The notes beneath the pieces were generated by a model, which saw only the letters and a program-made list of their open reading frames with translations, did not search any database and was not told the DNA's origin. Made by a program: the position numbers and the translations under genes. A DNA stretch of 56,778 nucleotides, taken from IMG/VR virus record IMGVR_UViG_3300006188_000003; one strand, written 5' to 3'. The stretch is from a virus. This document shows positions 2,139 through 5,434 of this stretch, piece by piece. How positions within the stretch are numbered: position 1 is the stretch's first letter; each line of letters begins with the position of its first letter.

Positions 2139-2414
2139 ATGTACAACGAACTATCTACTGCCGAAACGATCACCCACCACTTTGTGGATGATGCTGTGCC
2201 TGCTTACGAGGCAATGGAGAGCTTTCGCCGGCACTTTCCCCTGACGAATCCCCAAGTTTCAAACGACGGTCGATCGATGACCTATCAGGCGACAGCCACC
2301 CGGGATTCGCGGTTGTGTACAGCACATGCCATGGAACTGATCGACACCCTTCAGCTGCCACTTCAACCGATCATCCTGGACAACAAGGTCTGGATCCTAT
2401 ATACCGGCAAGTAG
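2139..2414 (+). CDS. Hypothetical early protein
   Basis: ATG ORF of 91 aa. Its stop TAG at 2412..2414 abuts hammerhead stem I. Confidence 0.6.
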   Translation: MYNELSTAETITHHFVDDAVPAYEAMESFRRHFPLTNPQVSNDGRSMTYQATATRDSRLCTAHAMELIDTLQLPLQPIILDNKVWILYTGK

Positions 2415-2492
2415 GTTAACTGATGAGCCCTCTATGGGCGAAACCGGGCGCGGAATAAAATAGTACCTGCTGAATGCGCTCAGGTCTTAACC
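2414..2492 (+). ncRNA. Type I hammerhead self-cleaving ribozyme (predicted cleavage between 2486 and 2487)
   Basis: Stem I is GGTTAA 2414-2419 paired with TTAACC 2487-2492. Core is CTGATGA 2420-2426. Stem II is GCCC/GGGC with loop TCTAT. GAA is at 2440-2442. Stem III starts with A2443-T2485, and the cleavage triplet is GTC 2484-2486. All invariant core positions are present. Confidence 0.8.
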
Positions 2493-2500
2493 AACGAGTA

Positions 2501-2656
2501 ATGAGCAACGACCGCATATACACCGATGTTCCGAACTGTGCCTTCCACAAGATCCTCCGGCAGTATGCCATTGAGATCGGCCGGCCCATTCTGACGATTC
2601 AGCAGCAGCGGATCATGCTTATCAATTATTCCTTTTTCGCTATAACCTTAAACTAA
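2501..2656 (+). CDS. Hypothetical small protein (51 aa)
   Basis: Start placed at ATG 2501, because the upstream ATG 2474 lies inside hammerhead stem III and upstream of the cleavage site. Confidence 0.45.
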   Translation: MSNDRIYTDVPNCAFHKILRQYAIEIGRPILTIQQQRIMLINYSFFAITLN

Positions 2657-2657
2657 A

Positions 2658-2849
2658 ATGAAGAAACTCATGAAAATCGCTCGAATTGGCACCTGGTTCT
2701 GTGCCGCCCTTTTTTGCAGCGCGATCTGGGGATGGGTAATTTCCCGGCAGATGAGGTTCGCCTTCTTGGCAGGTGCGGCTGTAGCAGGTGCATGGCTCTT
2801 TTCCTATTGTTTTAAACAATTCAAACGCATCGCCAATGGACCCCTTTAA
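2658..2849 (+). CDS. Small membrane protein (2 predicted TM helices)
   Basis: Hydrophobic segments IARIGTWFCAALFCSAIWGWVI and FAFLAGAAVAGAWLFSYCF. Confidence 0.6.
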   Translation: MKKLMKIARIGTWFCAALFCSAIWGWVISRQMRFAFLAGAAVAGAWLFSYCFKQFKRIANGPL

Positions 2850-2994
2850 ACTCATTTTGAGCATCCTGGTTTTTGTTGCCCTTTACGTTGGGTATCAGTG
2901 GGGCAAGACCCGTGATGAGCGTCGCCGAGCCCGTGAGAGGAGGATGTTCTGGGAGCGGGAGGAGGCGAAACTGCCGAAGGCAAATAGAAAATAG
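2836..2994 (+). CDS. Small single-pass membrane protein (52 aa)
   Basis: ATG 2836: MDPFKLILSILVFVALYVGYQW followed by an Arg/Glu-rich tail. Confidence 0.5.
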   Translation: MDPFKLILSILVFVALYVGYQWGKTRDERRRARERRMFWEREEAKLPKANRK

Positions 2995-3381
2995 AAAATC
3001 TTTTGATATAAAACATATCGCAAGGTTACTCGTGACGGTCTTTTGTGGCGTGGCTTTCCTGATGGTCATCAACCTTATGACCGGTTGCCGGAAGGAGCTG
3101 CCCGTAGAGTCGCCGGCAACGCCGACGCCGAAGCAGAAATGCAGCTGCCGGCCGATGCCCCAGGTAGATACTACGCATGCATCCACGTTAGACCCAGGAA
3201 CCTGATTAGCGTCCTTGGACGCTTCTGGGGTTGATTCGCACCCTCTCACCTGGCGGCTGGAGATGGGAAGCGGTCCCCACCTCTTTAATCTGTCCGGGCA
3301 GTCTCCCGAAGAGTTCTTTACAATCTTCCGTCTTTGACGGAAAAATCTCAAACAGGGCCGGCTCCATACTGCCGGCCAAAT

Positions 3382-3449
3382 GGGGAAGTAGTTCAGCGGT
3401 AGAACAGGCTCGCAACGCCTAGTCGGTGGTTCGAATCCATCCTTCTCCA
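3382..3449 (+). tRNA. tRNA-like gene (68 nt) with canonical acceptor, D and T arms but only a 3-4 bp anticodon stem
   Basis: GGGGAAG-TA-GTTC-AGCGGTA-GAAC-A-GGC-TCGCAAC-GCC-TAGTC-GGTGG-TTCGAAT-CCATC-CTTCTCC-A. The 5' half closely resembles bacterial tRNA-Gly. The loop would read GCA with C at position 33. CCA is not encoded. Confidence 0.5.
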
Positions 3450-3582
3450 CGCTCTTAGGCGGGATATAAGCAGACCAGCGCAGCGGTGGCGAGGCTGGCA
3501 TACCGCGGAAGACCACCCCAGCCGATGGCAGGCTGACGATCGGGAAAGACCGGGTGACTCTTAGGAATACCAGCTAAGTGAA

Positions 3583-3650
3583 AGGGATGCGCGCTATCAG
3601 ACCCGCGCGGGCAGGGTAGCAACGAAAAGGGTTCGACTCCCGGCATCCCT
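3583..3650 (+). ncRNA. 68-nt stem-closed element carrying a T-loop-like motif
   Basis: AGGGATGC 3583-3590 pairs with GCATCCCT 3643-3650. Internally there is GGG-TTCGACT-CCC and a GCTA..TAGC arm enclosing CCC-GCGC-GGG. It does not fold as a cloverleaf. Confidence 0.3.
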
Positions 3651-3691
3651 CAAGTAGAATTATTCTACAGTTTAGGGTTTAGGGGTTATTG

Positions 3692-3720
3692 GCGGGATGT
3701 TTCTACGTCCCGCACCTTTT
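3692..3720 (+). terminator. Terminator-like hairpin inside the non-coding locus
   Basis: GCGGGA (3692-3697) pairs with TCCCGC (3708-3713) across a 10-nt loop, followed by ACCTTTT. Confidence 0.4.
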
Positions 3721-3743
3721 AATAGTTCTTTGAATCAACATAA

Positions 3744-3870
3744 TTGCGGGTGGCGGAATAAGACGCTAACCAGGTGGGCTAACAGGTAACAGACGACAAA
3801 GCGCGACAAGTCCGGAAACTAACCACCATGCAGGTATGAGACAATCCTGCCCCGCAAACATATTTTTTTT
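3744..3870 (+). ncRNA. Candidate structured small RNA closed by a long-range stem and ending in a T-run
   Basis: TTGCGGG 3744-3750 pairs with CCCGCAA 3851-3857, nested GGTGG 3750-3754 pairs with CCACC 3824-3828, and GCTAAC(C)AGGT occurs twice. T8 at 3863-3870. No ORF. Confidence 0.25.
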
Positions 3871-3873
3871 GAT

Positions 3874-4233
3874 ATGTCAACTGATGCCCTACGACCTGAT
3901 CCCAGGCAGGGGGCCATTCTCAGGTCCATAATAGGATATTGGATTTTAGCACCCTCCGGCTGGTCTCAGCTGGAGGACCATTTTAAAAAATTTTTTATGA
4001 ATACTTACAGAGAACGTGTACAGGCTCTTATTGAAACCCTTCAGGCTTGCTATGACGAGGCAGGGGTGTTAAGGGATTACTCAGACGGGGAATCTATGAA
4101 AGCGCCTTTTAATAATGCCAGGCGTTTGCTGGTGGACGTGTGGAGTCCTCTCCAATCACTAGATAACCGCCTGCCTGACGATGTAGCTGCAATGAACACG
4201 AAGGGCTGCGGTTTGGTCAAGGAATCTAAGTAA
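3874..4233 (+). CDS. Hypothetical protein (start uncertain; alternative ATG at 3997)
   Basis: ATG ORF of 119 aa. The C-terminal two thirds look protein-like and helical. Confidence 0.5.
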   Translation: MSTDALRPDPRQGAILRSIIGYWILAPSGWSQLEDHFKKFFMNTYRERVQALIETLQACYDEAGVLRDYSDGESMKAPFNNARRLLVDVWSPLQSLDNRLPDDVAAMNTKGCGLVKESK

Positions 4234-4266
4234 ACCTGCCGGGAGGAATAGCCCGGTTCTATATAT

Positions 4267-4392
4267 ATGCGTGATATTTTCGGCGACGAACGTGACCAAC
4301 TGGAACGCGACAACTGGGCCGCTGCCTTACAAGGCTGTGGTCCCGGCGATGAAGAAGACGACGAGACGGAAGACGTAGTAGACGAAGCGTAG
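4267..4392 (+). CDS. Very acidic micro-protein (41 aa)
   Basis: MRDIFGDERDQLERDNWAAALQGCGPGDEEDDETEDVVDEA. Below the ORF-track cutoff. Followed by a GC-rich hairpin. Confidence 0.3.
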   Translation: MRDIFGDERDQLERDNWAAALQGCGPGDEEDDETEDVVDEA

Positions 4393-4471: not shown

Positions 4472-5434
4472 ATGAGCACAAATGTAATGAATTCGCAAAA
4501 CAGTATCATGCAGGTTCTCAAAGACACGGCGCCGGCTGCCATTGCAGAGCTGGACTTCGTGCGTGACCGGTATGTCCAGAACTATAACGCCTGCCACCGG
4601 GAAAAGGTGGGCGAGTTGATGTATCACCGCAACGTGATCCACTTTAAGCAGATCCTCGCCGGCAGCGACAAGCTGCGGGCATGCGATCCTTTCAGCCTAT
4701 ACGCTGTATTTGCAACAGCTGCTGTCAACGGGTACAGCCTGGATCCGCAGGACGACGAAGTATACATTGTTCCAAGAGACGGTAAGGCGGTCCTCCAGCG
4801 TCAGGCAGGAGCCTATGTCCGCAAGCTGAAACGCTCCGGGCAGATCCTCGATGCCAACAAGCCCGTCCTGGTCTATCAGGGGGATACCTACCAGGTGCAG
4901 AACGGCAGGGTCATTCTCCATGTCGAGAACTTCCAGAGTGACATAATTGTCGCCGGTTATATCAGGTTCGAGCTGGACAGCACCGGTCGCGACTTATATG
5001 CTACCTATCGCAGGTCTGACTGGGAGAGCTGGCGCGAGAAGTCGCAGATGAAGGATGGCCCGAATTGGAACCACCGGGGCGCTGGCCAACCGCAGCCCGA
5101 GTTCCTGAAGACAAAGATCACGTTACATGCATGTAAGGCGAAGCATTGGGCTATCGGCACTACTCCTGCCAATGTAGAACAGTTTACCGACATAGAGGTG
5201 GATGTCGACGACAGCCAACCGGTGGATCGCGCACATGCCTTACAGGCCCACCCCATCGGGCAGGCGACGCGGCCTTTCCAGACGGCCCAACAGATTCCGA
5301 GCACTTCTAATCCACAGGTAGGTCCTTCGCCAGGAGGAGTAGCTGCAGGAGCATCTGCCAACGGCTTCGCACAAGAATCCCAGAGCAGCGGCAAAGGCTC
5401 CGTATCATTCGAAGACCCTGAAGTATCATTTTAA
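4472..5434 (+). CDS. recT: RecT-family single-strand annealing recombinase
   Basis: SLYAVFATAAVNGYSLDPQDDEVYIVPRDGKAVLQRQAGAYVRKLKRSGQI fits the RecT core pattern. A PD-(D/E)XK exonuclease lies downstream. Confidence 0.7.
   Translation: MSTNVMNSQNSIMQVLKDTAPAAIAELDFVRDRYVQNYNACHREKVGELMYHRNVIHFKQILAGSDKLRACDPFSLYAVFATAAVNGYSLDPQDDEVYIVPRDGKAVLQRQAGAYVRKLKRSGQILDANKPVLVYQGDTYQVQNGRVILHVENFQSDIIVAGYIRFELDSTGRDLYATYRRSDWESWREKSQMKDGPNWNHRGAGQPQPEFLKTKITLHACKAKHWAIGTTPANVEQFTDIEVDVDDSQPVDRAHALQAHPIGQATRPFQTAQQIPSTSNPQVGPSPGGVAAGASANGFAQESQSSGKGSVSFEDPEVSF

Follow-up and report, generated by a model that had tools for sequence, protein, structure and literature searches.

Phage T4 carries two stable RNAs of about 120 to 140 nt and unknown function, species 1 and species 2 (rnaC and rnaD), which lie in its tRNA cluster and are matured together with the tRNAs. 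GOLLD and ROOL, which also have tRNA neighbors, are prophage-encoded single RNAs of roughly 400 to 800 nt with conserved cores of their own. The manA RNA (RF01745) has remained an orphan "riboswitch candidate" since 2010, with neither a known ligand nor a known function. manA RNAs typically lie in 5' untranslated regions (UTRs) (Weinberg et al. 2010, PMC2864571). Here we analyze a gene-free stretch in the early operon of a prophage, IMG/VR record IMGVR_UViG_3300006188_000003 (56,778 nt, all of which is referred to as the window), and in particular its element X, a 114-nt junction RNA that appears, judging from its sequence, to derive from a leucine tRNA.

A preliminary description had proposed that positions 2995 to 3873 hold one large ornate RNA or an undescribed ribozyme. 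We consider it likely that the region is a mosaic, in which a lipoprotein gene is followed by separate RNA genes derived from tRNAs, X among them being a conserved structured RNA. The RNA genes, three in number (68, 67, and 114 nt) and separated by hairpins and TTTTAA, are probably non-decoding. The expectation that something undescribed lay here was borne out by one conserved RNA filed in no family, but found no support as to a large RNA or ribozyme. What is new is X itself, as a variant of tRNA-derived, manA-like RNA. Its resemblance to the T4 species 1 and 2 RNAs is one of context only.

Element X and its homologues

The terminal element of about 115 nt noted in the preliminary description proved to be a conserved structured RNA, 114 nt long, that belongs to no Rfam family at threshold. 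Its parts are as follows.

3724 to 3743, plus strand: conserved motif AGTTCTTTGAATCAACATAA, directly upstream of X
3744 to 3857, plus strand: element X, 114 nt, apparently a tRNA-Leu-derived junction RNA
3744 to 3750 with 3851 to 3857: P1 of X, followed by a UG linker
3753 to 3755 with 3764 to 3766: P2 of X, with loop GAAUAAGA
3773 to 3777 with 3823 to 3827: P3 of X
3830 to 3834 with 3846 to 3850: P5 of X, with loop UAUGAGACAAU, abutting P1

Homologues were sought with both ends of X as a pattern over metagenome contigs, which returned 44 matches, about 30 of them due to chance; in a control, genome contigs with both ends gave 19 matches, all attributable to chance (GC-rich, coding, and without the flanking motif). 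The real homologues are six other distinct sequences (L007, L047, L058, L068, L064, and L098a), with a length of 111 to 140 nt, and two X copies come from IMG/VR viral contigs. A further candidate, L063, was doubtful at 15.7 bits and was excluded. Every copy shares one fold, in which a 7-bp P1 and the UG linker lead into a P2 of 3 to 4 bp with an 8- to 9-nt loop; then come one or two arms in a variable middle part and, abutting P1, a P5 of 5 bp. Across copies P2 appears as GCG/CGC, GUC/GAC, or GUG/CAC, and P5 as GCAGG/CCUGC, GCAGC/GCUGC, or GUAGG/CCUGC. Pair counts over the X alignment found 99.2% of cells paired and 7 of 15 pairs changed on both sides, a level reached by none of 500 shuffles; slid controls gave 35 to 48%.

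Covariance model R1 recovers all copies of X together with a 128-nt paralogue, L098b, which has a canonical D-loop (GAAUGGUAGA), the T-loop hairpin GCAGG-UUCGAAU-CCUGC, and a fully compensated P1. At 5413 to 6040 of contig L098 (IMG/VR UViG_3300025297_000125), three unusual tRNA-shaped RNAs stand in a row: X, the 128-nt tRNA-like RNA with a 42-nt insert in its anticodon region, and an 85-nt "tRNA-Gly(ACC)" at only 20 bits.

Most X copies are preceded by a motif, AGTTCTTT(GAAT)AAACATA, that was absent from the search pattern and usually comes after a terminator-like hairpin. It may serve as a promoter or be a site of processing. The spacing of AGTTCTTT does not match the Bacteroidetes -7/-33 promoter consensus, so a promoter of that kind is doubtful. 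Exact-pattern scans that included the upstream motif returned nothing, owing to a 1-nt indel between lineages.

Ancestry of element X and relation to manA RNAs

The first 25 nt of X are nearly those of a tRNA-Leu acceptor and D-arm. Its 5' end reads UUGCGGGUGGCGGAAU-AAGACGC against GCCGAGGUGGCGGAAUGGUAGACGC in tRNA-Leu, and side by side the two run UUGCGGG-UG-GCGGAAU-AAGACGC and GCCGAGG-UG-GCGGAAUGGUAGACGC. In cyanophage S-CREM1, the best match of the X model is that phage's tRNA-Leu. The helices of X are spaced as in a cloverleaf (7 bp, 2 nt, 3 to 4 bp, and a last stem of 5 bp with 0 nt to the closing strand), and in L007 and L098a the two middle arms can be read as an anticodon arm and the long variable arm typical of class II tRNAs. 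Because of this cloverleaf geometry and the D-arm sequence, we take X to be descended from a tRNA, apparently one of class II (leucine type), with the cloverleaf helix geometry retained.

Like class II tRNA-Leu (RF00005), X has a 7-bp closing stem, a UG linker, a second stem of 3 to 4 bp with a loop of 8 to 10 nt, a variable middle with one or two arms, and a 5-bp last stem stacked on the closing stem, but it lacks G18G19, the UUCGA T-loop, a conserved anticodon loop, and an encoded CCA. Neither the tRNA covariance model (E <= 10) nor ARAGORN detects it. The GG of the D-loop and the UUCGA of the T-loop are the two partners that meet at the elbow of a tRNA; X has lost both, and their places are taken by a GAAUAA loop and an 11-nt loop, UAUGAnnnAAU.

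Among non-tRNA Rfam families, manA is the best match for X, at 20.2 bits (E 0.017) for the window and 22.5 bits (E 0.067) for L064, both below threshold; the other X variants gave no match to the manA model at E <= 10. The aligned parts are the block comprising P1, UG, and GAAUAA and the last hairpin with its 11-nt loop. Both RNAs are multi-helix junctions closed by P1, with a UG linker, GAAUAA, and a 5-bp last hairpin carrying UAUnnAnnAAU and abutting P1, and both occur in phages. The true manA of S-CREM1, used as a control, scores 96.6 bits and sits flush between tRNA-Leu and tRNA-Asn. The motif reads GCGGG-UG-GCG-GAAUAAGA and GCAGG-UAUGAGACAAU-CCUGC-CCCGC in the window, the counterpart in S-CREM1 being GGAUG-UG-AC-AGAAUAA and GUGAG-UAUGACAGAAU-CUCAC-CAUCC; it is confined to the window/L064 subtype, with L098a matching in part.

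The differences are equally concrete. X measures 111 to 140 nt, compared to about 190 nt for manA, and the P3/P4 core of manA (GGUGGUGC, ACCA loop) and its upstream P0 hairpin are missing from X, being deleted in the model alignment. The middle of X varies between homologues, and four of the seven sequences (L058, L068, L047, and L007) are without the 11-nt P5 loop. X belongs to phages of Bacteroidota, while manA is found in cyanophages and marine bacteria, and X is tied to no one downstream gene: it does not share the manA location in 5' UTRs of mannose/fructose, nucleotide-synthesis, chaperone, or photosynthesis genes. The idea that manA always lies in tRNA arrays was dropped, as the manA of P-SSM2 is in a 5' UTR. 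A blastn search of the S-CREM1 manA against phages returned only itself.

Modules 1 and 2 and the slot that holds them

Upstream of X, the locus contains two further tRNA-like modules set among hairpins and conserved blocks. The features of the window from the lipoprotein gene to the next protein gene, X apart, are as follows, with the corresponding interval of three relatives at the end.

3008 to 3205, plus strand: small lipoprotein gene, with signal peptide, lipobox LMTGC, and Pro-rich tail
3209 to 3224, plus strand: hairpin GCGUCC-UU-GGACGC, directly after the lipoprotein stop codon
3226 to 3320, plus strand: conserved non-coding leader block of about 95 nt, upstream of module 1, with AGTTCTTTA at its end
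3356 to 3377, plus strand: leader hairpin GGCCGGC-N8-GCCGGCC, its end 4 nt upstream of module 1
3382 to 3450, plus strand: tRNA-like 1 (module 1), called tRNA-Cys(GCA) by ARAGORN; 50.8 bits to Rfam tRNA; minimum free energy (MFE) fold a cloverleaf
3451 to 3583, plus strand: spacer seen in this phage lineage only, folding z +0.05, with interleaved complementarities at chance level
3540 to 3553, plus strand: conserved hairpin UCGG-GAAAGA-CCGG, within the spacer
3584 to 3650, plus strand: tRNA-like 2 (module 2), 67 nt, with a 7-bp stem GGGAUGC/GCAUCCC, a central 6-bp hairpin, and the T-loop hairpin GGG-UUCGACU-CCC
3654 to 3722, plus strand: module boundary, with palindrome GTAGAATTATTCTAC, GTTTAGGGTTTAGGGGTTA at 3670 to 3688, a terminator-like hairpin at 3692 to 3713, and then ACCTTTTAA
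3859 to 3876, plus strand: AU hairpin, CAUAU-U-rich loop-AUAUG, containing a U8 run (direct reading)
3886 to 3996, plus strand: 5' leader of a 78-aa gene, with hairpin A at 3886 to 3914, GGGGGCCAUUC and AGGAUAUUGGA, hairpin B at 3953 to 3976, CCAUUUUAAAAAAUUUUUU, and the ATG at 3997
L012, lipoprotein gene to 78-aa gene: the same conserved leader, an initiator-like tRNA-Met, a 70-aa open reading frame (ORF), and the boundary motifs, without X
L031, lipoprotein gene to 78-aa gene: an 880-nt gene-free stretch with tRNA-Met, an Asp-like tRNA, and tRNA-Trp
L007, lipoprotein gene to 78-aa gene: X, then tRNA-Gln, then a 125-aa ORF

The preliminary description was right about two tRNA-like modules of about 68 nt, the second of them recognizable by its acceptor-like stem and GGGUUCGACUCCC. 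At 50.8 bits, module 1 exceeds the gathering score of RF00005 (29 bits), with gaps in the alignment of its anticodon stem. Its decoding arm departs from that of a working tRNA: the anticodon stem has 4 bp, the UCGCAAC loop carries C33 in place of U33, the discriminator is A73, and no CCA is encoded. The acceptor stem pairs G1-C72, G2-C71, G3·U70, and G4-C69, ending in A73. Among tRNA identity elements, U73 belongs to cysteine, and G3·U70 with A73 is the alanine set; by these established rules, the acceptor of module 1 is of the alanine and not the cysteine type. The "tRNA-Cys" call is probably misleading and serves as a warning for annotation. A chance match of the pattern scan in Plesiocystis pacifica (L179, 661 to 731) is another tRNA-like gene, in this case chromosomal, which has a 6-nt anticodon loop and is reported by ARAGORN as "tRNA-???".

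In the equivalent region of L002, an element at 5327 to 5395 scores 30.9 bits as tRNA and 28.8 bits as tmRNA, the latter by way of its tRNA-like ends. It keeps G3·U70 and A73, shows a compensatory change at 5:68 relative to module 1, and, where an anticodon arm would be expected, contains just GGC-GCGC-GCC. From these two sequences we infer that module 1 and the L002 element are non-decoding alanine-type tRNA-like RNAs. With G3·U70, A73, and a degenerate or absent anticodon loop, they resemble the tRNA-like domain of tmRNA and alanine minihelices. They differ from these in having a D-arm and neither an mRNA-like domain nor a tag ORF. ARAGORN found no tmRNA in the window and Rfam none at 2300 to 4100, and no tag-peptide frame was found. 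A 21-mer from the 5' half of module 1, tried as a clue to its origin, is generic tRNA-Gly/Asn D-arm sequence and was uninformative.

Module 2 folds with a perfect acceptor-like stem and without a D-arm or anticodon loop. It escapes both ARAGORN and the Rfam tRNA model (E <= 10), and its tRNA descent is read from its acceptor and T-loop sequence. It was seen in this lineage only.

The modules are swapped from one relative to the next. The place of module 1 is taken by tRNA-Met in L012 (384 to 456) and L031 (4366 to 4438), that of module 2 by the 70-aa ORF in L012; the Asp-like tRNA of L031 scores 46 bits and is missed by ARAGORN. The tRNA-Met genes of L012 and L031 look initiator-like: positions 1 and 72 are mismatched (G·A), and the anticodon stem contains three G-C pairs in succession. 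Since modules have been exchanged independently in L012, L031, and L007, the stretch is better described as a slot of cassettes bounded by a hairpin and TTTTAA(AAA) than as one RNA. Positions 3206 to 3996 thus appear to be a "tRNA slot" of the early operon, one that relatives fill with ordinary tRNAs (Met, Asp-like, Trp, and Gln).

Several of the elements between cassettes are conserved. The leader block at 3226 to 3320 is more conserved than the adjoining coding DNA (blastn identity of 78% over 3220 to 3402, compared to 72 to 73% over longer matches that take in neighboring genes), and a 1-nt indel in it breaks every reading frame; covariation within it was not convincing. It may act as a promoter, an operator, or a leader. 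An 18-mer of the leader, tried as a search handle, gave chance matches only. The hairpin after the lipoprotein stop codon, present as described (GCGTCC/GGACGC, 3210 to 3223), is replaced in L012 and L031 by a different one, GCGC-AGCGAT-GCGC. The GGCCGGC/GCCGGCC hairpin at 3356 to 3377, also confirmed by direct reading, has an invariant stem and a variable loop in L012 and L031, and a GC hairpin lies 3 to 4 nt 5' of the tRNA in all lineages, the L002 version differing in sequence. The 12-mer CGGGAAAGACCG, which forms the hairpin YCGG-GAAAGA-CCGR, occurs once per lineage on the plus strand in four lineages (the window, L002 at 5777, L031 at 4709, and L058 at 5099), always inside the islands and in three of the four 7 to 30 nt upstream of the 5' end of a tRNA or tRNA-like RNA; it may be a processing or protein-binding site. 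The boundary at 3654 to 3722 is 86 to 96% identical to L012 and L031 (blastn). Within it, GTTTAGGGTTTAGGGGTTA consists of two plant-telomere-like TTTAGGG units in a G-run context, kept in L012 and L031 before the terminator-like hairpin. In the place of the AU hairpin that follows X, L007 has CUACC-GCUUUU-GGUAG.

The limits of the slot are set by its protein genes. The claim that no credible protein gene lies in 2995 to 3873 fails for 2995 to 3205, where the conserved lipoprotein is encoded, and holds beyond it: as this gene ends at 3205 and the downstream gene begins at 3997, the gene-free stretch is 3206 to 3996. Gene callers left the homologous stretch empty in four independent records. In the frame ending at 3205 the lipoprotein reads ...LLVTVFCGVAFLMVINLMTGC-RKELPVESPATPTP...KCSCRP...TLDPGT. 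It shares 59% amino acid identity with the product of L012:18-212, has database matches P0006 (65 aa, 58% identity) and P0007 (the window protein itself, called from the GTG) at E ~4e-33, and is called as a gene in L031 and L034. The ATG of its homologues aligns with an ATA at 3008 in the window, and gene callers use a GTG at about 3031, giving 57 aa; such a start would leave the signal peptide without a charged N-region, or the gene may be impaired. Ahead of the lipoprotein, positions 2658 to 2994 encode two small membrane proteins with counterparts conserved in L002 and L031: one has 63 aa and two transmembrane (TM) segments, the other 52 aa, an N-terminal TM segment, and a tail that is charged. 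Together the three have a superficial holin/spanin or superinfection-exclusion look, yet they lie in the early region. Downstream, the 119-aa ORF at 3874 reduces to a true gene of 78 aa from 3997: all five homologues have 76 to 78 aa, and the 3874 frame is stopped in L007 and crossed by indels of 1 and 2 nt in the alignment of window and relatives. The 3886 to 3996 leader of this gene, in which GGGGGCCAUUC and AGGAUAUUGGA are invariant and four pairs show compensatory changes (alignment folding, four lineages), is a candidate cis-regulatory element of its own.

At about 56 kb, the window is a prophage that carries a cI-like repressor gene on the minus strand (1008 to 1511), an early operon on the plus strand, and, at its far end, an ORF of the size of an integrase gene. 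Its DNA was found identical in a "Sphingobacteriales bacterium" metagenome-assembled genome (MAG) and several metagenome assemblies, and its nearest RecT relative, at 71% identity, is in a prophage of a Puia sp. MAG (L002, the same as L001); these two observations point to a Chitinophagaceae-type Bacteroidota host. Loci anchored on RecT in viral and genome collections yielded this single relative, where the RNA stretch shows no DNA similarity, and blastn of 2400 to 4300 against 50,697 phage records gave no matches. Further lineages (L012, L031, and L007) were reached through homologues of the flanking proteins.

Alternative readings and meaning of the locus

Several points weigh against the mosaic and the place of X in it. 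X is represented by only seven distinct sequences and one paralogue. In the seven, the invariance of P1 was imposed by the search pattern, and all four compensatory pairs in P1 come from L098b alone, whose homology to X is inferred; the alignment behind the pair counts was fitted to the model and misplaces P5 of L007. Modules 1 and 2, known from only one or two lineages, may be pseudogenes in decay, and folding energies are unexceptional. As to manA, the scores of 20 to 22 bits compare with a gathering threshold of 55.2, true manA is not picked up by the X model (the best overlap being the P5 hairpin at 5.4 bits), and high-scoring manA RNAs such as that of P-SSM2 lie in mRNA 5' UTRs, not in tRNA arrays. 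Together with the missing core and the 11-nt loop absent from four sequences, these facts are why X is not counted as a manA RNA; its sequence would make it manA-like without being a member.

One alternative is that modules 1 and 2, perhaps with X as well, are tRNA pseudogenes decaying in a resident prophage, functionless save for what is left of signals for transcription or processing. The intact tRNAs that relatives have in these slots count in its favor, as do the shortened anticodon stem and C33 of module 1, the missing D-arm and three-pair T-stem of module 2, and a spacer at 3451 to 3583 that is lineage specific and has no folding signal. However, module 1 and the L002 element retain all acceptor and T-arm pairs as well as G3·U70, with covariation at 5:68, which neutral decay should not spare, and X, with compensatory changes and a conserved motif ahead of it, has been retained by at least six diverged phages. 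We find decay plausible for the first two modules and implausible for X; as an account of the whole we think it unlikely. Another reading would make X a miniature manA-type cis-regulatory (riboswitch-like) leader for the ORF at ATG 3874 or 3997, acting via the U8 run and the AUG-containing AU hairpin. Sub-threshold matches to manA and the usual 5' UTR position of manA RNAs (PMC2864571; P-SSM2) favor it, and it is kept alive by a likeness between tails after the last helix, ACAUAUUUUUUUUGAUAUG at 3858 to 3876 of the window and, in the P-SSM2 manA (L101, 1215 to 1255), AAUAUUUUUUUGAUUAUG, which ends at the purL start. Yet what follows X differs among phages: tRNA-Gln in L007, a tRNA-like region in L058, a tRNA-like RNA in L098, and a terminator with an unrelated small ORF in L064. 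Being tied to no particular downstream gene argues against a classical cis-regulatory leader, as do L012 and L031, where X is missing yet the same 78-aa gene is present with its conserved leader, and the stop and indels in the 3874 frame, and we regard this role as quite unlikely.

That the whole of 2995 to 3873 is one large ornate RNA or undescribed ribozyme is by now largely refuted and very improbable. It drew on about 800 nt without genes, numerous local hairpins, and adjoining tRNA genes as reported for GOLLD and ROOL, and most of the stretch is indeed non-coding RNA territory next to a tRNA. But the first 210 nt are coding, and sub-modules that relatives exchange independently do not make a single GOLLD- or ROOL-like molecule. 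An Rfam run over 2300 to 4100 on both strands found no GOLLD, ROOL, twister, twister-sister, pistol, hatchet, HDV-like, or group I RNA at E <= 10, and at gathering thresholds module 1, as tRNA, is the sole match in the whole window. The region is not unusually GC-rich (0.536, compared to a window mean of 0.510 with a standard deviation of 0.037; 25% of equal-size windows are as GC-rich), nor is it packed with structure, with folding z of -0.89 (3451 to 3873), -1.89 (3200 to 3385), and -1.04 (minus strand). The interleaved GGTGG..GGCTGG..CCACC..CCAGCC is present at 3486 to 3524, but a pseudoknot there is at chance level, as such interleaving arises in 4.5% of shuffles when 133 nt are taken and in 42% when the 879-nt region is dinucleotide-shuffled as a whole. 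The argument that a new ribozyme might lie near a hammerhead some 500 bp upstream loses its premise, since that hammerhead scores 17.7 bits against a cut-off of 48.5. The hammerhead-like core (2383 to 2449) consists of CUGAUGAG, a 4-bp stem II, CGAAAC, and a GUC site; it straddles the end of a 91-aa ORF and reaches E 2 as type III (RF00008), stem I is weak, as is stem III, in which three of seven pairs are non-standard, the MFE fold contains no hammerhead, and no conservation was seen in alignable relatives. A hidden protein gene, such as the 231-aa minus-strand ORF at 2821 to 3516, is scarcely credible. The minus strand does have a stop-free run of 250 codons, but this ORF lies antisense to the tRNA and two conserved genes and was rejected, as it has no Pfam or PHROG match and is split in L031 into pieces of at most 80 codons; the 1-nt indel in the conserved leader also disrupts the frame. 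Pfam and PHROGs searches of ten ORFs found nothing within the stretch, and no record has a gene called there.

Returning to the mosaic of tRNA-derived RNA genes, we propose that the island would be transcribed with or within the early operon, or from AGTTCTTT-associated sites, and that host RNase P and 3' tRNA-processing enzymes (RNase Z) would excise the tRNA-shaped modules. The released RNAs would act as tRNA mimics rather than adaptors, directed at host factors that bind tRNA, such as synthetases, processing or modification enzymes, and tRNA-targeting defense nucleases. The mimic function alone is less likely than not, but a real possibility. A broader proposal is more doubtful: X may found an undescribed family of leucine-tRNA-derived non-decoding RNAs in phages of Bacteroidota, manA may be an expanded class II tRNA scaffold with its elbow loops replaced by the GAAUAA/UAUGAnnnAAU pair, and X and the alanine-type anticodon-less RNA may together form a tRNA-mimic toolkit against host tRNA-binding enzymes or tRNA-targeting defenses.

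As a compact relative of manA, with its 111 to 140 nt, tRNA-Leu ancestry, and place in a tRNA slot, X suggests that manA may be a tRNA-derived RNA processed along with tRNAs, and it offers a smaller construct for work on manA structure and binding. Arrays of non-decoding tRNA-shaped RNAs, such as an alanine-type acceptor without a usable anticodon and a module of acceptor and T-arm only, would be evidence that phages can turn tRNA genes to new RNA functions, which bears on how phages may counter defenses that target tRNA.

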